64,000 nucleotides of DNA from sequence record PX068456.1. The stretch is one strand, 5' to 3'. Position 1 is the first letter of the stretch, and every line of letters starts with the position of its first letter. Below the pieces are notes generated by a model. It did not search any database. It was not told the DNA's origin and worked only from the letters and a program-made list of their open reading frames with translations. This stretch comes from a phage. Made by a program: the position numbers and the translations under genes. Positions 19,579 through 31,827 of the stretch are shown in pieces.

Positions 19579-19929
19579 ATGCTTGATGTAACTATTAATG
19601 GTGTTAAATATATTCCTTATGTAGAGAAAAGCAATCCTGATGCCCTGGATGTTATGTTTGAGGATTCAGATCTTGGTACTGTCACTGTACGGGAATATTT
19701 CCGACAACTACTCTCTACGTTATGGAGAGAAGAAGAGTGTTTTAATGGTAAACGTCCATTTGGTAACTCATGCTGGCAATTTGATATGATCCGTGCCTTA
19801 ATTGAGGCAGGGTATATTGAAGGTACAGTTGTGTACGATGAAGATGGATATCCAGAAGAAACTGATTACGACAGTAAAGAAGCTAATAAATTTATACAGG
19901 GCTTGATTGCACAGATGTGTTTGGGTTAA
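19579..19929 (+). CDS. hypothetical protein (116 aa)
   Basis: ORF track. Confidence 0.5.
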   Translation: MLDVTINGVKYIPYVEKSNPDALDVMFEDSDLGTVTVREYFRQLLSTLWREEECFNGKRPFGNSCWQFDMIRALIEAGYIEGTVVYDEDGYPEETDYDSKEANKFIQGLIAQMCLG

Positions 19930-19930
19930 T

Positions 19931-20317
19931 ATGAAAGTATTAAATTTCTACCATTTAGGTAAAGTAATACCTGAAGGTGCAGTGTACATTGGCAGAGCTA
20001 TGCCTCATATGGGGCTAAAAGCCTCAAAGTTTGCAAATCCTTTTAAGCTAAAGGATGATGAACCACGAGGATCAACTATACAAAGATATAAAGAGTGGTT
20101 GTGGGAACAAATTCGTTGTGGTAAAATCACTCTTGAGGATTTGTTAGAATTAGAAGGGAAAGACTTAGTTTGCTTCTGCTCACCTCAACCTTGTCATGGT
20201 GATGTGTTGGTAGCAGCGGTTGCTTGGGCTAGAACAGAGTGGGATAAAAGGCATCCTACTTACACAGATGATTATTGGATTTGGGAGGATATTTATGAAG
20301 ACTACACAAGAAATTAA
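19931..20317 (+). CDS. DUF4326-like protein (128 aa)
   Basis: motifs YIGR...ANPF and CFCSP.PCHGDVL recalled as DUF4326 signature; not verified. Confidence 0.4.
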   Translation: MKVLNFYHLGKVIPEGAVYIGRAMPHMGLKASKFANPFKLKDDEPRGSTIQRYKEWLWEQIRCGKITLEDLLELEGKDLVCFCSPQPCHGDVLVAAVAWARTEWDKRHPTYTDDYWIWEDIYEDYTRN

Positions 20318-21205: not shown

Positions 21206-21682
21206 ATGTCTAAACGTTTTGGTCGTAATCAAAAAAGAAAGTTAAGTGCTCAACTAGCAGCTTTGCAAAAAGAGGTTAACACTTTACAAAAAAGTGTTTG
21301 TGAACTCAAGGAACAAAACCAGCTTGAAAAAGAATGTATTCAGCTTACACAGGAAGTTATTGGGGAGTATTTCCCTTCATTAGTGCCTAAGAAGGTGGCT
21401 CTTAGGGAAAATCTACCTTTTGCCTTATCCTTGATGCAAACAAGGGATAGATTCCAAACTGAAACTGAGGATTTGATGTTTGCAATGCATCAATTACGTG
21501 GTTTAGAATATACAGCACAAGTGGATAAACTTCGTAACATGCTATATGTGCGGGTAGAAACACCTAAAGGTGAGACAGTAGCGTTTAATTATAATTTCCA
21601 ACAACTACCTGATCATATTATTGAACAAATTTTAAAACGAGATTTTGTTCCTATGCTTGTTAAACAAATTAAGAGAGGTTGA
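21206..21682 (+). CDS. hypothetical coiled-coil protein (158 aa)
   Basis: ORF track. Confidence 0.5.
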   Translation: MSKRFGRNQKRKLSAQLAALQKEVNTLQKSVCELKEQNQLEKECIQLTQEVIGEYFPSLVPKKVALRENLPFALSLMQTRDRFQTETEDLMFAMHQLRGLEYTAQVDKLRNMLYVRVETPKGETVAFNYNFQQLPDHIIEQILKRDFVPMLVKQIKRG

Positions 21683-21683
21683 A

Positions 21684-23420
21684 ATGGCTAAGAAAGAGTT
21701 GAGTTTTACTCCAACAGAAGAGCAAACAGCTATTAAGGAGGCTTTTCCAGATCATCGGTTTTTAACTATCCAAGCTAAATCTGGATCAGGAAAAACGTCA
21801 ACACTTTATTTGCTGGCTAACAGTACAGAAGATCGCATTCTTTACTTAGCTTTCAATAAAAGCATGGCAGAAGAAGCACGGCGTAAGATGCCACCAAATG
21901 TAGAATGCCGTACATTGCATTCCATTTGCTATCAATTCCTGGATCATCGTTTACGTGCAAAACTGTCACGACCAGAAGGGCAGTATGTTAACGTTGCAGG
22001 TACAGGTAGTGAGATAGCAAAGAAATTTAAGATTAATAATCTTATTGATAAACGAGGGAAAACACTTTTAACTCGTGCTATGATTGGTTTAATGATCAAG
22101 CAAACCGTAGGTAAGTTTGAATTTTCGGATGATCCTTTTATCAGCCGTAAACATTTTCCTGGTGTACATCTTGCAGATATTAAAAGAAAAGGTATTAACG
22201 AACACAAACTAATTACAGAAGTAGTTAAGTATGCAAAACAATTGTGGCGAGAGCGCATTGATCCTAACACAGATACTTTGATGACGCATGACACCTATGT
22301 AAAATTGTTTGAATTGTCTGGTGCTGATCTTGGTTATGACATTATTTTTGGGGATGAATTCCAGGATGTTAACCCTGCATTCTTGTCTATTCTGCGGAAT
22401 GCTAAATCTGCAAAACAAGTAGTGGTGGTGGGAGATGAATATCAGAGCATCTACCAGTTCCGTGGAAGCCAAAATATGATGAAGGAAACCTCTACATATG
22501 GGGCAGAGCTTCCATTAACTGCTTGCTTCCGTTTTGGCCCCAAAGTGGCAAACATTGCGAATATGATTTTAAGTGATAAAGAACCTTTGCGTCATCCTTT
22601 GGTTGGTAAAGGCTTTGATACTGTAGTAGGTAGCTACAAATCAGATGTTGTAGACTATACAAAACCTTACACTATCATCTTTCGCAAGAATTTAACCTTG
22701 CTTATGGAGGCAATGGATCGTATTGCAGATGGGGAAGAAATTATTATTAACGTAGATACCAGGGATTTTATCTCTATGGTAGATAGTGTTAATGCTCTTC
22801 GGAGAGGAGATATTGAGAAAGTAAAACATGAAACTGTATTACCTTACGCAGACTGGAATGAATTTGTTGAGTGTGCAGAGGCTGATCCAGATGCTAAACG
22901 CTTGTTAAACATCGTAGTTTCTGGCAAGGCAAACACTATAGCACATACACTTAGAACGCATAGAAACTCTCCTACAGCAAAAGTCACACTGACTACAGCA
23001 CATAAGTCTAAAGGTTTGGAGTGGGATCAGGTTATTGTTGCTAATGATTTTCCTTCCAACTATGATAAAAAGACTGGTGAGTGGGTAGGACTAGAAGAGG
23101 CAGAGCGAAACCTATTGTATGTAGCGCATACCCGTTGTGTTAAATGCTTACAATGGAACACAACCGTACAGGAGATTATAGATATCAACCGTGTTGCAAC
23201 AGAGAAAGTACCCACAAGCACTACTTTACCGATCAATGGTATTAAACTTGGTGTATTTGGTGCTGGCACATCTCGAAAAACTGTAGAAAAATTTGTTGCA
23301 GATTCTTTTGATGGTAACTATAATCATGCACAAGCATATGAGAGTTGGCTAGAGGAAGGTGAAGGTGATTTCTTAGGTGAAATAAATCTTTTACCAGACA
23401 TAAATAAACTGGTAAACTAA
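21684..23420 (+). CDS. UvrD/Rep-like superfamily 1 DNA helicase
   Basis: Walker A AKSGSGKTST, motif II IFGDEFQD, motif III VVVGDEYQSIYQFRG, motif VI TAHKSKGLEWDQV. Confidence 0.7.
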   Translation: MAKKELSFTPTEEQTAIKEAFPDHRFLTIQAKSGSGKTSTLYLLANSTEDRILYLAFNKSMAEEARRKMPPNVECRTLHSICYQFLDHRLRAKLSRPEGQYVNVAGTGSEIAKKFKINNLIDKRGKTLLTRAMIGLMIKQTVGKFEFSDDPFISRKHFPGVHLADIKRKGINEHKLITEVVKYAKQLWRERIDPNTDTLMTHDTYVKLFELSGADLGYDIIFGDEFQDVNPAFLSILRNAKSAKQVVVVGDEYQSIYQFRGSQNMMKETSTYGAELPLTACFRFGPKVANIANMILSDKEPLRHPLVGKGFDTVVGSYKSDVVDYTKPYTIIFRKNLTLLMEAMDRIADGEEIIINVDTRDFISMVDSVNALRRGDIEKVKHETVLPYADWNEFVECAEADPDAKRLLNIVVSGKANTIAHTLRTHRNSPTAKVTLTTAHKSKGLEWDQVIVANDFPSNYDKKTGEWVGLEEAERNLLYVAHTRCVKCLQWNTTVQEIIDINRVATEKVPTSTTLPINGIKLGVFGAGTSRKTVEKFVADSFDGNYNHAQAYESWLEEGEGDFLGEINLLPDINKLVN

Positions 23421-23431
23421 GGGGGGTTAAA

Positions 23432-23683
23432 GTGGCAGGGTATCATTTGAAGGAGATTAGCAAAGAGGAATATGGTTCTGTTGCTAAGATTCAAGAAGAG
23501 CTTTATGAACTTCAGGATGCTATTGCTCAAGATTGCAAGCTGATGCAACTTATTGAGTTATCAGATATTGTAGGCGCTGTTGAAGGTGTTCTTGAACAGC
23601 ATTTTCCTGATATGACGCTTCAAGATTTGATCACTATGTCAAACATTACTAAACGTGCATTCCGCAGCGGAGGTCGATCATGA
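23432..23683 (+). CDS. putative MazG/HisE-like all-alpha NTP pyrophosphohydrolase (83 aa), GTG start
   Basis: EE..EL...A.....L.ELSD pattern resembles MazG-type NTP-PPase. Confidence 0.35.
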   Translation: MAGYHLKEISKEEYGSVAKIQEELYELQDAIAQDCKLMQLIELSDIVGAVEGVLEQHFPDMTLQDLITMSNITKRAFRSGGRS

Positions 23684-24252
23684 ATGTTGCAGTAATAGCT
23701 CAAGCTATTGATTACTATGGTCGGTTTGCACAAATGTTGGAAGTTCCCTATCTCGTGGATGCTGATATACTGGCGTACACACTACCAGAAAATAAAGAGG
23801 ATCGCCCATTAGGGCATCCTAACGGTAAATACTATGTAGCTAGTGCAGAACAATCTTTCCTGCAAATGGAGAAGGATGGTTTTGAATTTGCAGCAGGTAA
23901 TCCGTATATGGCACTAACACCATGTTACCGTACAGAAGAAAATTTAGATGATACCCATTTTAATATTTTCTTGAAATTGGAGTTGATTGAGTTCTACCCT
24001 GATGCTACAATTGAAGAGTATGCTAACGCTATGCGCTGTTTCTTCTCTACTTATTATGGAGTTAAAACATATTTAGTACCCACTAATATTGGGGTTGACG
24101 TAGAGGATGAATATGGTTTAGAATTAGGTTCATTCGGTATGAGGGAGTCTCCAAAAGGTCATCCTTATATCTATGCAACAGGTATTGCAGAGCCTAGGGC
24201 TTCACTGGCAATAAACCGTGTTGTAAATAACATTCAAAGCATTAGCAAATAA
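23680..24252 (+). CDS. class-II aminoacyl-tRNA-synthetase-like catalytic core fragment (190 aa)
   Basis: motif-2-like TPCYRTEE....HF..LELIEF and motif-3-like GIAEPRASLAI; pattern recognition only. Confidence 0.35.
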   Translation: MNVAVIAQAIDYYGRFAQMLEVPYLVDADILAYTLPENKEDRPLGHPNGKYYVASAEQSFLQMEKDGFEFAAGNPYMALTPCYRTEENLDDTHFNIFLKLELIEFYPDATIEEYANAMRCFFSTYYGVKTYLVPTNIGVDVEDEYGLELGSFGMRESPKGHPYIYATGIAEPRASLAINRVVNNIQSISK

Positions 24253-24264
24253 GAGGAGAATAGA

Positions 24265-24699
24265 ATGTCTATTGTGACACAAATGAAAGCAGATCGTATC
24301 TTAGCACGTACAACCGATAAGGGTGCTTTTGCTTTGTTAACTAATATTATTGGTGAGTTTGACCTTGCTCGTACTCAAAAGGCAAATCTAAACAAATCAG
24401 AAGACGATATTATGATTAACATTGTTAAGATTGGTATTGCACACGCTAAAGAGGAACTAGACTCGCTTAAGAAAGTTAATGCTTCCATTAGTAAGTGTGA
24501 GCGAGCTATGCGTGATATCACCACTCTGGAAAAATATTTACCAGAAATGCTATCTGAAGATGATCTTCGCGCTATTGCTGAAGAATTTGCCTTGACAGGC
24601 AAGAAAATGCCAGATATGATGAAACACCTTAAAGCAGAGTATCCGAATCAATATGATGGAAAACTTGCTTCTACCATTGCAAAAGAAATTTTAAACTAA
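24265..24699 (+). CDS. GatB/YqeY-domain protein (144 aa)
   Basis: C-terminal YLPEMLSEDDLRAIAEEF...DGKLASTIAKEIL matches YqeY-domain pattern. Confidence 0.45.
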   Translation: MSIVTQMKADRILARTTDKGAFALLTNIIGEFDLARTQKANLNKSEDDIMINIVKIGIAHAKEELDSLKKVNASISKCERAMRDITTLEKYLPEMLSEDDLRAIAEEFALTGKKMPDMMKHLKAEYPNQYDGKLASTIAKEILN

Positions 24700-24716: not shown

Positions 24717-25667
24717 ATGATTGCATTTTACGCTAATAAACTGGAAGTTAAAAAAGCAGCAGAAGAGATGGGTATCCTGCATATTCTTAACGAAGCAATT
24801 CACAAGAGTTTTGGTTACACAACTGAAGCAGAAATCAATGATCTGATTCACAGTGTTAATGATTTGTTCTTCTACCCTAACTTTCTACAGCAGTTAGATG
24901 GTTGTGGATTTGAATATATGGAACTTCATCCTGAATATACATTTATGGAAGTAACACCTGAAGGTTTTCTGGAAATTATTCGTACTGAATATCTTGCTAA
25001 TGAGGATAAAGAAAAAGATATGGCTGAAAAAGTACAACTGACTGTGCATAATACGTGTTTCCTGGATACTGATGCCACGGAAGAAGATATTAGTTATCTG
25101 CTTTCAGTTTGTAATCCTCGTTGTCCACAACCACATTGGAAAAATGCAGATCATTATCTAATGTATTCAACTGAAGAAAACATTACTTTCTTCGATGAAA
25201 ACAGTGGTATTAATGGTGCACATAAGAATTCTCCATATCGGAAAGATCGGTTTGTAGTTGATGTAAAAACATTTACTAAACTGTTTGAGGAGTATTATTC
25301 AAAAGATGAAAGTAAAACTGAATCTTCACCAAAACCACGTTTTCGCCGACCGCGTAAACCTGTGCCTACTCGTTCTGTAAGTTATGTTCGTATCATTTAC
25401 ACTACACAGCAGGTATATACTCTTAAGAACGTAAGTGTTCTTACTGTACAAGAAGATGCAATTAATATTGTGCGCAATAATGTTATTACAGAGGGTATTG
25501 AGGAAAAGATTATGTCTGTTATCGATCCTAAACTTGTTATGGCAATCATTATTAATGAACCAAAAGGTGTAACAACATTGTTCCGAAATATTCATGGTAC
25601 TTGGGAAACTCAAGTTGACGGTTTGACTTCTGACGGTTGTACACGTATTACCAAAAACCTTGACTAA
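24717..25667 (+). CDS. hypothetical protein (316 aa)
   Basis: ORF track; RBS GAAGGAG. Confidence 0.5.
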   Translation: MIAFYANKLEVKKAAEEMGILHILNEAIHKSFGYTTEAEINDLIHSVNDLFFYPNFLQQLDGCGFEYMELHPEYTFMEVTPEGFLEIIRTEYLANEDKEKDMAEKVQLTVHNTCFLDTDATEEDISYLLSVCNPRCPQPHWKNADHYLMYSTEENITFFDENSGINGAHKNSPYRKDRFVVDVKTFTKLFEEYYSKDESKTESSPKPRFRRPRKPVPTRSVSYVRIIYTTQQVYTLKNVSVLTVQEDAINIVRNNVITEGIEEKIMSVIDPKLVMAIIINEPKGVTTLFRNIHGTWETQVDGLTSDGCTRITKNLD

Positions 25668-25714: not shown

Positions 25715-25740
25715 AAAGCCAGCTTAATGCTGGCTTTTAT
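25715..25740 (+). terminator. intrinsic terminator AAAGCCAGCttaatGCTGGCTTTTAT
   Basis: GC stem plus T-run. Confidence 0.5.
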
Positions 25741-25756
25741 TTTCCACGGAGGATTA

Positions 25757-27556
25757 ATGACCCAAAAACTATATGAGGATGTAATCGGATTCCTCGAACA
25801 AACATCCGAAGAATTTACTCGTGAAAATGCAAACAAACCTGCAATGATTGTTAATACTCACCGAGACTTACTAGCAGGTATTCTGAGCAAGCACATGGCA
25901 ATGACCCATATTTTACCGGAAGATTTAGCAGAATGGCATAAAAGCGGGTATGGTCACATTCACGATTTAGATTATTTACTCTCACCTTTAACTAATTGTT
26001 GCCTGGTAAATTACCAAGATATGCTTGAGAACGGTTTCCGTATTGGTAATGCACATATTGAAAAACCAAAATCTATCGGTGTAGCAACTACTGTTCTAAC
26101 TCAAATTATTCAAGCAGTAGCTTCTAGCCAATATGGTGGACAAACTTGTGCACATATTGATACTGGGCTTAGTCAATACGTTAAAGCAAGTTTTAATAAA
26201 ATATATGCCGATGTTGGCGATTATGATATTGCTATGCGTATGGTAGATAAACAGGTCTATGATGCAATGCAAACTTTAATCTACCAGGTGAACACCCTAA
26301 TGAGTGTAAATGGTCAGTCACCTTTTATAACAATTAGTTTAGGTTTGGATACCTCTGCTTTTGGTAGAATGATCACTAAAAACTACCTAATGGTGCACAA
26401 ACAAGGTTTAGGAAAAGATAGGGTAACTCCTGTGTTCCCTAAAGTTATCTTCTTCTTGGAAGATGGTGTTAACATGAAAGCTGGTGATCCAAACTACGAT
26501 TTGAAGCAACTGGCAATGGAGTGTTGTGCTGAACGCATTTATCCTGATTTTATCTCTGTACCTTTAAACAAAGAAGTTACAGGATCTTCAGATGGTCGCG
26601 TCACAAGCATGGGTTGTAGAAGTTTCTTGTCATACTATGCAACAGAGCAAGGTGAAAAATATGATGGTCGTTTCAATTTAGGCGTAGTTTCTTTAAACTT
26701 ACCTATCATTGCAGCAGAGTCCCGTGAAAAGGGCATCTTATTTACTGAACTGTTGGAACAACATATGGAGATGGCGTATAAGGCACATATGCTACGTGTT
26801 AACCGTATTAGACATACCAAAGCATCTCAAAACCCTACATTGTTTATGGAAGGGGCTTTAGCTCGATTAGAAGCTAATGAAGAGATTGGTAAACTATTTG
26901 AAGGTGGTTATGCCTCTATTAGTATCGGTTATGTAGGTTTAGCAGAAGCTATGGAGATTTTATACCCAAATAACACCAATCCAAAAGCAATGGGTAAAAA
27001 CATCCTTCAATATATGAAGGATATCTGTTGCACATTTAAAGAACGTTCTGGTTTAGCTTTTAGTTTGTATGGAACACCAGCAGAATCCTTGTGCTATAAA
27101 TTTGCCAAAGCGTTAAATGATCGCTACCCTGGTTCTATTGATCGTGACTACTTGACAAACTCTTTCCATCAACCTGTATGGATGCACACTACCCCGTTCC
27201 AAAAATGGGATTATGAGGAAGGTTTTGCACAAATTAGTAATGGTGGGAACATAGGTTATGTAGAAACACCGAACCTTAAAAATAACTTGCAAGCACTGGA
27301 AACTCTTGTAGATTATGCCTACAACAAAATTCCTTATTTTGGCGTGAACCAACCTGTAGATCAGTGTTTCAAATGTGGTTTTCATGGTGAATTTAAGGCA
27401 ACAGCTAAAGGCTTCGAGTGTCCAAGTTGTGGAAATCATGAAGAAGAATCCATATCTGTGATCAGAAGAGTGTCAGGATACCTTTCTGCCCCTAACTCTC
27501 GCCCTTATAATAAAGGTAAAATGCAAGAGGTACTAGAAAGGGAGAAACACTTTTGA
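25757..27556 (+). CDS. nrdD: anaerobic ribonucleoside-triphosphate reductase
   Basis: size and N-terminal region; C-terminal Zn site CFKCG...CPSCG and glycyl-radical-type motif RRVSGYL. Confidence 0.8.
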   Translation: MTQKLYEDVIGFLEQTSEEFTRENANKPAMIVNTHRDLLAGILSKHMAMTHILPEDLAEWHKSGYGHIHDLDYLLSPLTNCCLVNYQDMLENGFRIGNAHIEKPKSIGVATTVLTQIIQAVASSQYGGQTCAHIDTGLSQYVKASFNKIYADVGDYDIAMRMVDKQVYDAMQTLIYQVNTLMSVNGQSPFITISLGLDTSAFGRMITKNYLMVHKQGLGKDRVTPVFPKVIFFLEDGVNMKAGDPNYDLKQLAMECCAERIYPDFISVPLNKEVTGSSDGRVTSMGCRSFLSYYATEQGEKYDGRFNLGVVSLNLPIIAAESREKGILFTELLEQHMEMAYKAHMLRVNRIRHTKASQNPTLFMEGALARLEANEEIGKLFEGGYASISIGYVGLAEAMEILYPNNTNPKAMGKNILQYMKDICCTFKERSGLAFSLYGTPAESLCYKFAKALNDRYPGSIDRDYLTNSFHQPVWMHTTPFQKWDYEEGFAQISNGGNIGYVETPNLKNNLQALETLVDYAYNKIPYFGVNQPVDQCFKCGFHGEFKATAKGFECPSCGNHEEESISVIRRVSGYLSAPNSRPYNKGKMQEVLEREKHF

Positions 27557-29453: not shown

Positions 29454-29609
29454 ATGCTTACAGATGATGAATATAAAGCTATCCAGGAAAAACTAACGGA
29501 GCTTGAAATTCTTGCTGTCAATATTAAAGATCAATCACATGCTGGAAAGTTACTACATCAAGAGATCAATAAAATTAAGCAGATGATATTCTTTTGGACG
29601 GAGGATTAA
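29454..29609 (+). CDS. hypothetical small protein (51 aa)
   Basis: hand-translated; AAAGGGGAAGAAA RBS. Confidence 0.35.
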   Translation: MLTDDEYKAIQEKLTELEILAVNIKDQSHAGKLLHQEINKIKQMIFFWTED

Positions 29610-29611
29610 AA

Positions 29612-30268
29612 ATGACTGTTAAGCATATTTCTTTTGATGTATGGAATACTCTTATTACTGCTAATCCTTTGTATGCAGAAGAACGCAACAAGGTTATTGC
29701 CGAGTATGCCTCTTGTTCTGAGGCAGAAGCAGCTACCGTATATAAAGAGGTAAAAACTCTCCTGGATTTAAAAGCAGAAAAAGGCATTTGTGGAACGTCT
29801 AGGAATGCTTGGGAAACACTTTCTGCTCGTTTGAACATTGATCTTGATAAAGTAGATGGGTTAAAAAGAGACTGTTTAGCAATGTTTATAAAACATCCTC
29901 CAATATTGAACCCTGAGCTTTGCAAGAAGTTGGAAGAGCTAAGTTCAACCTATTCTTTGAGTATTAAGAGCAATACTAATTTTGTACCAGGTAGTTTCTT
30001 AGCTGTATATTCTGGCTTAACAAAATTACCATTTGATTTTATGCATTTTTCTGATGAGTTTTGCTTGTGTAAACCAGATCCTAGGTTTTTTAAACTCTCT
30101 TTTGATGAAATGGTAACGTTTGATCTCGCACCAGAGGAGATTTTACACGTTGGAGATAGTTTGATTTATGATGGAAAAGCTGTTGACATAGGGATGAAGT
30201 TCTGTCATATTACTAATCCAGAAGACTTGTTGGCTAAACTTAAAAAAGAGGAACTTATTAATGCGTAA
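29612..30268 (+). CDS. HAD-superfamily-like hydrolase (218 aa)
   Basis: N-terminal ISFDVWNTLI (motif I-like, second Asp replaced) and C-terminal HVGDSLIYDG (motif IV-like). Confidence 0.45.
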   Translation: MTVKHISFDVWNTLITANPLYAEERNKVIAEYASCSEAEAATVYKEVKTLLDLKAEKGICGTSRNAWETLSARLNIDLDKVDGLKRDCLAMFIKHPPILNPELCKKLEELSSTYSLSIKSNTNFVPGSFLAVYSGLTKLPFDFMHFSDEFCLCKPDPRFFKLSFDEMVTFDLAPEEILHVGDSLIYDGKAVDIGMKFCHITNPEDLLAKLKKEELINA

Positions 30269-31118
30269 TCAAATTCAACATTTTGCTAATACTTTTACTA
30301 ACCTGAAGGAAGCAAAATTTAACATTGCAGATTATTCCAAACTAAAGTTTGGTAGTAACCAGGCAGCAAAAAGAATGGGACGCATTCTGGCTGAAAGTTT
30401 CTTTTCTAAATATGAAGAACGACTAGTAAATGAAAGTTTTGTTGTTATTCCATCTCCATACAACTATGTGAAAAATGCAGCTACAGTGTTATCTGAACAT
30501 TTTGTAGATCACCTCAACTACCTAATCTCTATCAAAGGAGGTAAAGCAGTAGAGTGGGATATCGTTCATCGTAAAGTGAGTTATATCAATGATTATGGAT
30601 TTCTTAGCAAAGAAGATCGTAAGGCTTTGATCGATGGTGACACTTTCTCTATCAATCGTGATTTCTGGGGTAATAAAACTCTGATTTTCATTGATGATGT
30701 TAATATTACAGGAACACACGAAGAAAAACTTATTGAAATTTTAGACAAAGAAGGTGTTGAAAACGATACGTTTTTTCTGTACTTTGCAAAGTATGAAGGT
30801 ACAGAAGCCAACACCGAAGCTGCACTTAACTTCAACTATATCAATAACCTGGCAGCTTTTATTAAAATGATTAAGCAAGAAACTGATGCTAAATGTTTGG
30901 TTCGTCCTATTAAGTATCTAATGAGTCAAAGCGAAGTTGATTTTAAAATTGCACTTTCACAACTTCCTTTGTATTATGTAGAACAACTGTTCTTTGGTTG
31001 CCTTGCAGAAGGTTACAATAATATTGAAAAATACAAAGAGAACTTTGATTTCCTGCGTCAATTTTTTGAAAGCAACATTATCAACAAATCTAATGTTAAA
31101 GGGGATTATTATGTCTAA
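30261..31118 (+). CDS. type I phosphoribosyltransferase (PRTase) family protein (285 aa)
   Basis: PRPP-binding signature LIFIDDVNITGTHEE. Confidence 0.55.
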   Translation: MRNQIQHFANTFTNLKEAKFNIADYSKLKFGSNQAAKRMGRILAESFFSKYEERLVNESFVVIPSPYNYVKNAATVLSEHFVDHLNYLISIKGGKAVEWDIVHRKVSYINDYGFLSKEDRKALIDGDTFSINRDFWGNKTLIFIDDVNITGTHEEKLIEILDKEGVENDTFFLYFAKYEGTEANTEAALNFNYINNLAAFIKMIKQETDAKCLVRPIKYLMSQSEVDFKIALSQLPLYYVEQLFFGCLAEGYNNIEKYKENFDFLRQFFESNIINKSNVKGDYYV

Positions 31119-31827
31119 TAAAGTGACGACTTTCGGAGATCCTATCACCAATATTACAGAAAAAGATTTTGGGCGTGTAGCAACAGATAAAGATGGTGTC
31201 TTAAGAATTCGTGTACAAGGCATTACAGCACAGGATGAATATGCTGTGTATGTTTCAGGTCTTAATTATATTGATGATCGCATCACACAAAACTTTGCAC
31301 TGATCGGTGGTGTAGAGAAAATGTACTGGGAAGATGAAATTGTAACAAGTTATCCAGCAGGTATCATTGAGGTATACGGTGATCTTTTAGCAGCAGCCGA
31401 GAGAGGCGATATCGACGCTATAGCACACTGCTGTAACTGTTTTTGCACTATGGGTAGTGGTATTGCACCAAAAATTAAAAGCAAGTGGCCTGGTGCGTTT
31501 AAAGCAGATTGTGCCACTAAACGTGGTGATTATAAAAAATTAGGTACGTTTACTAAGTATACAGAAAACAATTTGACAATTTATAATTTATATGGACAAT
31601 ATGGTTATAGTCGTCGTGAGGAAGGTAAGCGTGACCTGAATTATGAAGCTATCTACAATGCGTTAGATAGTATGGGAGACGATGTTGTATCTTCAGGCGG
31701 TAAAATTGTAGGTTTACCAATGCTTGGTTGTGGTTTGGCTGGAGGTTCTTGGAATATTGTAAAACTTATGATCGAAGAAACTCTAGTAAACAAAGGTTTA
31801 AATGTAATTGTTTACAAACTGAAATAA
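31111..31827 (+). CDS. macro-domain protein (ADP-ribose binding/processing) with ~100 aa N-terminal extension
   Basis: GDIDAIAHCCN and GLPMLGCGLAGGSW resemble macro-domain GDIT..DAIVNAAN and P.I.tGvyG motifs. Confidence 0.45.
   Translation: MSNKVTTFGDPITNITEKDFGRVATDKDGVLRIRVQGITAQDEYAVYVSGLNYIDDRITQNFALIGGVEKMYWEDEIVTSYPAGIIEVYGDLLAAAERGDIDAIAHCCNCFCTMGSGIAPKIKSKWPGAFKADCATKRGDYKKLGTFTKYTENNLTIYNLYGQYGYSRREEGKRDLNYEAIYNALDSMGDDVVSSGGKIVGLPMLGCGLAGGSWNIVKLMIEETLVNKGLNVIVYKLK

Follow-up and report, generated by a model that had tools for sequence, protein, structure and literature searches.

A MazG/HisE-like protein and a minimal seryl-tRNA synthetase-like core form a widespread two-gene module of large phages

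The DNA analysed here is a 64,000 nucleotide stretch of phage sequence (record PX068456.1; hereafter the window) that matches phi92-like coliphages (genus Justusliebigvirus) at 98-99% identity. On its + strand, the window carries two overlapping genes. The first (23432..23683; phi92 gp197, phrog_6408) encodes an 83 amino acid MazG/HisE-like protein, predicted to be an all-alpha nucleoside triphosphate (NTP) pyrophosphohydrolase. The second (23680..24252; phi92 gp196, phrog_4806) encodes a 190 amino acid protein that is a real, drastically minimised class II aminoacyl-tRNA synthetase (aaRS)-like catalytic core resembling seryl-tRNA synthetase (SerRS). These two genes constitute a module that is widespread and so far uncharacterised, and no description of it was found in the full-text literature searched. 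The obligate partner of the aaRS-like core is the MazG/HisE-like protein, and not the YqeY-family protein encoded next, which a first-pass annotation of the window had proposed for this role. Perhaps, and this is the tentative reading that we prefer, the module is a tRNA-independent ligase that, judging from its sequences, would adenylate a serine-like amino acid, couple this reaction to nucleotide pyrophosphohydrolysis and use an acceptor other than tRNA.

The SerRS-like catalytic core

Homologs of the 190 amino acid protein are all 175-200 amino acids long. An alignment of 32 sequences contains the invariant blocks YVASAEQSF, TPCYRxE, FLKLE, ELGSYGxR and GTGLAEPR. When the family profile is compared with the PDB, the best match is SerRS (2dq3, E 8e-5), followed by AspRS and PylRS. 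The AlphaFold model has a pLDDT of 94.9, and the protein has an antiparallel beta-sheet core flanked by helices, as in the class II aaRS superfamily. All three class II motifs are present, wherein P23 is nearly invariant, R84, F97, K99 and E101 are invariant, and motif 3 reads GTG(L/I)AEPR with R173 invariant in the alignment. Thus, the resemblance to class II motifs that the first-pass annotation had noticed is real.

Alignment with the Aquifex and Escherichia coli SerRS proteins reveals five invariant elements with SerRS counterparts. These are SAE (55-57) for TAE, TPCYRTE (TPCYRxE across the family) for TPCFRSE, F97xKxE101 for FDKVE, E148xxS151 for EISS, and T167...R173 for (S/T)GLAxxR. We take the matched SerRS residues to be those that in the Thermus thermophilus SerRS complexes contact ATP, Mg2+ and serine, the latter through its amino and hydroxyl groups. 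The presumed equivalents of the SerRS serine contacts (E57, E101 and T167) are invariant, with the second half of the core aligned by motif and structure only; a sequence search with that half gave no match. Across sequences that are ~30% identical, invariance likewise extends to E148/S151, the adenine-stacking Phe and the catalytic arginines in motifs 2 and 3.

This conservation bears on a quite unlikely alternative, in which the aaRS-like protein ligates nothing and instead acts in the manner of HisZ. It would sense ATP, an amino acid or an adenylate-like ligand and allosterically control the MazG/HisE-like hydrolase, so that nucleotide pools or alarmones are tuned to amino-acid status. The invariant catalytic arginines, E148/S151 and adenine-stacking Phe would exceed the usual needs of ligand sensing. 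Furthermore, the sequence similarity is to SerRS. There is no HisRS or HisZ among the PDB profile matches, and the similarity to HisRS is structural only and lower than that to SerRS. Neither a HisRS anticodon-binding domain nor any other extra domain is found in the 190 amino acid protein.

The protein begins at motif 1 and lacks the SerRS coiled-coil arm, and the Pfam domain Seryl_tRNA_N is not detected. Relative to SerRS, six residues are missing from its motif-2 loop. No Pfam aaRS model scores above threshold, including tRNA-synt_2b, and the best Pfam signal is a weak match to tRNA-synt_2d (E 0.13). Therefore, we consider the protein to be a complete but minimal class IIa core. It was rightly judged too short for a full synthetase by the first-pass annotation, and it carries nothing needed for canonical tRNA recognition. 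Such a core should adenylate a small amino acid and would have no means of recognising the body of a tRNA, and it appears to derive from a bacterial-type SerRS. That it might be a pseudogene or a SerRS remnant was considered and rejected on the basis of its constant length, its strong conservation and its presence in ~1,600 clusters.

Existing names vary. The original phi92 annotation calls genes 197, 196 and 195 'MazG-type fold', 'putative seryl-tRNA synthetase' and 'YqeY-like protein', and elsewhere gene 196 is named 'histidyl tRNA synthetase' (the PHROG name) or 'hypothetical'. The names 'seryl-' and 'histidyl-tRNA synthetase', present in hundreds of GenBank/RefSeq records, overstate what is known about this gene. 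Together with YqeY proteins called 'tRNA amidotransferase', this misnaming inflates counts of phage translation genes, and correction is warranted.

Some members carry an additional domain. The aaRS-like protein of Caulobacter phage CcrColossus (L003:4743-5597) has an N-terminal RNA polymerase alpha-subunit C-terminal domain (alpha-CTD; HhH; PF03118, 30.9 bits), which hints at contact with nucleic acid or RNA polymerase. The protein of Brevundimonas phage Bambus (L007:4527-5651) likewise has an N-terminal extension.

The MazG/HisE-like partner

To determine linkage, all six-frame open reading frames (ORFs) were searched with iterated profiles in loci from four sources, namely GenBank phages (9 loci), IMG/VR (80), metagenomic contigs (9) and species-representative genomes (15), with lineages defined by collapse at 60% identity. 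In 96 of 98 loci, representing 64 of 66 lineages, a MazG-like homolog is linked to the aaRS-like gene in the same orientation. The individual sets gave this association in 87 of 89 loci and in all 7 further loci, and it also holds for 13 of 15 loci from metagenome-assembled genomes (MAGs). The MazG-like gene is immediately upstream in 39 lineages, upstream with an insert in 13, downstream in nine and fused to the aaRS-like gene in three, while two lineages have no such partner. Thus, the MazG/HisE-like protein that the first-pass annotation mentioned only in passing turns out to be the real partner.

The fusions, which occur in at least three lineages, place the aaRS-like domain at the N terminus and the MazG-like domain at the C terminus. 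Seven viral loci carry such a fusion, among them that of Microcystis phage MaMV-DH01, as do three archaeal MAG loci; among the 150 best cluster representatives there are eight. At locus L098, a P-loop kinase is fused to the MazG-like domain. In four jumbo-phage contigs (L043:3064-4014, L054:3157-3987, L055:4471-5433 and L058:2890-3855), the MazG-like domain is the C terminus of a longer protein. The N-terminal ~200-230 amino acids of these proteins, which carry an IHDHRY motif, match phrog_4784 and give a weak cupin/cysteine-dioxygenase-like signal.

An EExxE...ExxD acidic motif is characteristic of the MazG-like proteins, with E22, E23, E26, E42 and D45 invariant among 30 diverse members, and it lines up with the HisE motif in PDB entry 2a7w. 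Sub-threshold matches to PRA-PH are found in 24 of 30 members (best E 0.0012).

There is no third conserved gene family that could supply a carrier or acceptor. All-vs-all clustering of neighbouring ORFs from 89 loci gave just antisense shadow ORFs and lineage-specific genes, and no PP-binding domain is present in the Pfam-labelled neighbourhoods.

The pairing also raises the possibility of dinucleoside-polyphosphate or alarmone chemistry. LysU, SerRS and other class II aaRS make Ap4A in a known side reaction. Perhaps the aminoacyl-adenylate formed by the core is used to make Ap4A/Ap4N-type compounds, which the MazG-like protein then shapes or limits. The ATP site is intact, the core has no acceptor-recognition domain and the partner is a predicted nucleotide pyrophosphohydrolase, all of which would suit this scheme. 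We nevertheless consider it very improbable. The amino-acid pocket is strongly conserved even though the amino acid would be catalytic only, there is no conserved ApaH or Nudix context, and the fusion of a synthase to a hydrolase of the same compound would presumably be futile.

Distribution of the module

An exhaustive hidden Markov model search for the aaRS-like family returned 1,601 clusters at 50% identity, of which 1,084 reach E<=1e-30. In GenBank, the gene is found in 273 phage records. These include phi92-like phages, Phapecoctavirus, rV5-like phages and Certrevirus, T4-like Acinetobacter and Morganella phages, giant phages of Caulobacter and Brevundimonas, and Microcystis phages. There are only 15 loci in 185,579 species genomes, and every one is on a MAG contig. 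The family is nearly confined to large phages, and it is also found in the chromosomes of a few ultra-small symbionts belonging to the Saccharibacteria and DPANN archaea. Two GenBank records labelled 'Campylobacter phage' with host Campylobacter jejuni (MG065656 and MG065639) are ~98-100% identical to the focal coliphage genes, which likely reflects a mislabelled host or contamination.

In a 798 kb Saccharibacteria MAG contig (JAXLZU010000001.1; L111:4651-5486), the pair is located between fusA, which encodes EF-G, and rpoC, and adjoins genes for an AAA_28 P-loop kinase and a NUDIX hydrolase. Because this is a cellular chromosome, the module is not strictly viral. In a Nanoarchaeota MAG contig (JAGQJW010000007.1; L108:2783-5777), a fused aaRS-like::MazG-like gene is found 0.9 kb downstream of a full-length SerRS gene whose product shows Seryl_tRNA_N and tRNA-synt_2b. 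Genes for an XPD-type helicase, a nitroreductase and adenylate kinase are close by. The SerRS and the fused gene may represent a paralog pair in a DPANN genome.

The YqeY-family gene

The gene that follows the aaRS-like gene in the window (24265..24699, + strand; phi92 gp195, phrog_1460) encodes a 144 amino acid protein. It was correctly assigned to the YqeY family by the first-pass annotation, scoring 30.3 bits against PF09424 (cut-off 27) and matching the YqeY structure 1ng6 (E 1e-4) and PDB entry 8xjg (E 0.01). YqeY domains are similar to the tails with which GatB and GlnRS bind tRNA, and YqeY itself is still little understood (PMC13374519).

On this basis one can imagine that the aaRS-like core and YqeY form a split synthetase or ligase, with YqeY supplying tRNA binding. 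In the window the two genes are adjacent and co-oriented, with a 12 nucleotide spacer. However, when linkage was examined with single-seed and two-seed iterative profiles in 93 loci, only 4 had YqeY at most ~1.5 kb from the aaRS-like gene. These represent two lineages, namely the phi92-like phages and one unrelated metagenomic phage contig, where YqeY is two genes upstream of the module. It was not found in the closest sister genus, Phapecoctavirus, whose aaRS-like protein is 76-83% identical and whose aaRS-like gene is followed directly, after a 16 nucleotide gap, by the gene for a 316 amino acid protein. It is also absent from 60+ other lineages.

The distributions of YqeY and the aaRS-like family among phages are largely disjoint. 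YqeY is present in 152 phage records, mostly from other groups (Vibrio, Sinorhizobium, T5-like and jumbo phages), and ~45 kb separate the two genes in Caulobacter phage CcrBL9. No fusion of YqeY to the core was seen among 194 family members. A conserved linkage of the two genes in related genomes was thus not found, and we give the split enzyme scarcely any credence. The broader idea of a ligase with a non-canonical role is still reasonable for a core without tRNA-recognition parts; it is the choice of YqeY as the second half that does not hold.

Gene layout and neighbourhoods

The module is part of a head-to-tail gene string on the + strand of the window, in the order helicase, MazG-like, aaRS-like, YqeY and 316 amino acid protein, with a GGAG-type ribosome-binding site before each gene. 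The stop codon of the MazG-like gene and the start codon of the aaRS-like gene overlap in the sequence ATGA. The string begins with an uninterrupted ORF for a 591 amino acid UvrD-like helicase (21645-23420). It ends at a terminator-like hairpin with a 9 base-pair stem and a T-run (25715..25737, + strand), which precedes the genes for NrdD and NrdG. No terminator-like sites are present on the + strand between 21903 and 25715.

The last gene of this apparent transcription unit (24717..25667, + strand; phi92 gp194, phrog_15930) encodes the 316 amino acid protein, which has no assigned function and no match in Pfam, NCBIfam or PADLOC. Among the loci compared, it is confined to those of phi92-like phages and Phapecoctavirus. 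Because there is no support from these three sources, its PHROG/RefSeq label 'ribonucleotide reductase' seems unfounded.

Two genes of the window differ from those of its relatives. The helicase of phi92, PHB05 and others is a 2.8 kb version annotated as intein-containing, and megablast matches of these helicases to the window, whose copy is uninterrupted, break into two pieces with a gap of ~1 kb. NrdD (25715-27556) is one intact ORF, whereas a split or spliced NrdD is annotated in phi92. Its true start is probably ~30 nucleotides further downstream, because the listed start at 25727 falls within the terminator-like hairpin. A 136 amino acid protein with a CFCSPQPCHGD motif (19907-20317) recurs ~3-4 kb from the module in loci of phi92-like, Erwinia and Morganella T4-like phages (nine loci in the clustering). 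Further along (29594-31827) are genes for a HAD hydrolase (29594-30268), a ComF-like PRTase_3 protein (30261-31118, 143 bits) and a Macro-domain protein (30994-31827), followed by Ter genes (TerC/TelA/TerD in relatives). This string represents a phage version of the 'Ter nucleoside-like metabolite' system.

A nucleotide theme recurs around the module. NrdD/NrdG are present in the window, the module is located between frd and td in Morganella phage MP1, and glutaredoxin/NrdH (glutaredoxin/thioredoxin) genes are found in AM101 and Vibrio phage 2.275.O. Genes for AAA_28/NadR-type kinases and NUDIX proteins are adjacent in three lineages, including the Saccharibacteria chromosome. The P-loop kinase fused to the MazG-like domain in L098 belongs to this theme, as do the HAD, PRTase and Macro genes of the window with the Ter genes behind them. 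Small radical-SAM enzymes are encoded near the module in 4-5 lineages. They were rejected as a partner because adjacency is limited to these few lineages and orthology among the proteins is not clear. In Klebsiella phage FBKp34 the module is located within a Ter cluster, which makes Ter-cluster membership attractive for Stephanstirmvirinae, but the idea was set aside because it was not seen in other lineages.

Some of these neighbours raise the possibility of a counter-defence function. The pair might bind, destroy or mimic a host amino-acid-nucleotide signal or a toxic nucleotide, such as a histidine-ADP-ribose (ADPR)-type compound or a chain-terminator. The module is overwhelmingly phage-borne, its aaRS pocket is pre-adapted to an amino acid beside an adenine nucleotide, its partner would cleave pyrophosphate bonds, and NAD/ADPR-related neighbours recur (NadR-like, NUDIX, Macro, PRTase/HAD and Ter genes). 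We find this explanation highly unlikely, given that the module is found among housekeeping genes in Saccharibacteria and DPANN chromosomes and that the full ATP-binding set is conserved, which suggests use of ATP over binding of a signal. The module also matches none of the defence, anti-defence or curated families in PADLOC and NCBIfam.

Proposed function

The tRNA-independent ligase that we prefer would operate through two translationally coupled genes for a MazG/HisE-like pyrophosphohydrolase and a stand-alone aaRS core, whose products probably work as a complex. The core would bind ATP and a small serine-like alpha-amino acid to form an aminoacyl-adenylate and pyrophosphate. The activated amino acid would then be passed to a non-tRNA acceptor, since the core alone cannot recognise a tRNA body, and the most plausible acceptor is a nucleotide-type small molecule. 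Perhaps the pyrophosphohydrolase generates this acceptor by converting an NTP to a nucleoside monophosphate (NMP) and pyrophosphate, in the way that MazZ serves PurZ and T4 gp56 serves dCMP hydroxymethylase. Alternatively, it might process the product afterwards, as HisE does with phosphoribosyl-ATP. YqeY and the 316 amino acid protein would be co-transcribed, lineage-specific additions. The role of the module would therefore lie in nucleotide or nucleotide-cofactor chemistry rather than canonical translation. Large phages and salvage-dependent cells of the candidate phyla radiation (CPR) and DPANN could benefit from such chemistry. In favour of the proposal are the catalytic motifs intact in both proteins, the near-universal linkage, the recurrent fusions, the missing tRNA-recognition domain, the nucleotide-related neighbours and the MazZ-PurZ precedent.

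Several points weigh against this proposal. The substrate, the acceptor and even catalysis are inferred. The 83 amino acid protein scores 16.2 bits against the Pfam PRA-PH/MazG models, below the cut-off of 21.3, and the E-values of its MazG/HisE fold search are not significant by themselves. The resemblance to MazZ-PurZ is an analogy only, and we know of no modified nucleotide or DNA base in phi92-like phages. In addition, the neighbourhoods are heterogeneous, and a tRNA/RNA theme recurs in them as well. RlaP is encoded within 2 kb of the module in 14 of 98 loci (3-4 lineages) and abuts it in L097 and L100, where a CCA-adding enzyme is encoded upstream; a CCA-adding enzyme is also found near the module in rV5-like phages. 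L092 has a class I aaRS as a neighbour and L108 the full SerRS, at a distance of 0.9 kb. In two independent lineages YqeY is close by, and the alpha-CTD (HhH) is fused to Caulobacter-phage aaRS-like proteins.

Because RNA-repair genes recur nearby, the main rival is an enzyme directed at the ends of tRNA or other RNA. The core would aminoacylate or cap the 3' ends of tRNAs or their fragments during phage tRNA repair or protection. RNA binding would be provided in trans by YqeY, the alpha-CTD/HhH domain or the RlaP/CCA-adding machinery, and the MazG-like protein would handle nucleotide substrates or by-products. Macro/phosphoesterase neighbours (L093) would also fit. However, the RNA-related neighbours are not conserved and the MazG-like protein is. 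The core has neither the SerRS arm nor a full-length motif-2 loop, no tRNA genes were found in the 64-kb window, and both module proteins are acidic across the family (median pI 5.1-5.2). Unselective charging of tRNA ends would presumably also be harmful. We therefore regard an RNA-end-directed role as unlikely.

Returning to the tRNA-independent ligase, a bolder version can be formulated, which we regard as rather doubtful. The pair may be an ancient, unrecognised enzyme of two components, used by large phages and by salvage-dependent CPR/DPANN cells to make or dismantle a conjugate of an amino acid and a nucleotide. With similar reserve, the conjugate could be a nucleotide or nucleotide cofactor that bears an amino acid through aminoacylation or amidation, or else a signal of the amino-acid-ADPR type. 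The 190 amino acid protein would then be, just as speculatively, a class II aaRS catalytic unit of nearly minimal size that occurs in nature and functions without tRNA. Because the module is abundant in large phages of varied hosts and also present in genome-reduced Saccharibacteria and DPANN archaea, what it yields is probably of broad use, namely a nucleotide-linked metabolite or activity that metabolic maps currently lack.

Comparison with known systems

If the proposed function is correct, the module would represent a new branch of tRNA-independent aaRS paralogs beside HisZ, AsnA, EpmA and the amino acid:[carrier protein] ligases, and an obligate NTP pyrophosphohydrolase partner of an aaRS paralog would be unprecedented. 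The 190 amino acid core is, to our knowledge, among the smallest natural class II cores (about 180-190 amino acids), a size that bears on ideas of minimal ancestral synthetases.

Compared with the catalytic domain of bacterial SerRS, the core lacks the N-terminal coiled-coil tRNA arm and ~60-100 residues of insertions. It also differs in its shortened motif-2 loop, its sub-threshold scores in Pfam aaRS models and its near-universal pairing with or fusion to a MazG/HisE-like protein. The amino acid:[carrier protein] ligases of the Bll0957/Atu2573 type are truncated homologs of the methanogen-type, zinc-dependent SerRS, are ~290 amino acids long and are encoded beside a carrier-protein gene. In contrast, the module core is of the bacterial type, has 190 amino acids and a predicted pyrophosphohydrolase partner, and is not accompanied by a conserved carrier gene.

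HisZ is a HisRS paralog that serves as the regulatory subunit of ATP phosphoribosyltransferase, and E. coli has a long-form HisG without HisZ. Relative to HisZ and HisE, the module core has no sequence similarity to HisRS/HisZ, keeps its catalytic residues and has no HisG partner.

In the MazZ-PurZ system of 2-aminoadenine phages, a small (d)NTP pyrophosphohydrolase of the MazG/HisE family supplies an NMP to an NTP-dependent ligase that joins an amino acid to a nucleotide (PMC8342488). The likeness, a MazG-family gene next to a gene for an amino-acid-ligating enzyme, is one of pathway logic only. PurZ is a homolog of adenylosuccinate synthetase and does not have the aaRS fold, and the window carries no PurZ, DatZ or DpoZ. 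A further likeness is to AsnA, EpmA/PoxA (GenX) and other class II aaRS-like ligases, wherein a class II core activates a carboxylate by adenylation, with ammonia or the lysine of a protein as the recipient.

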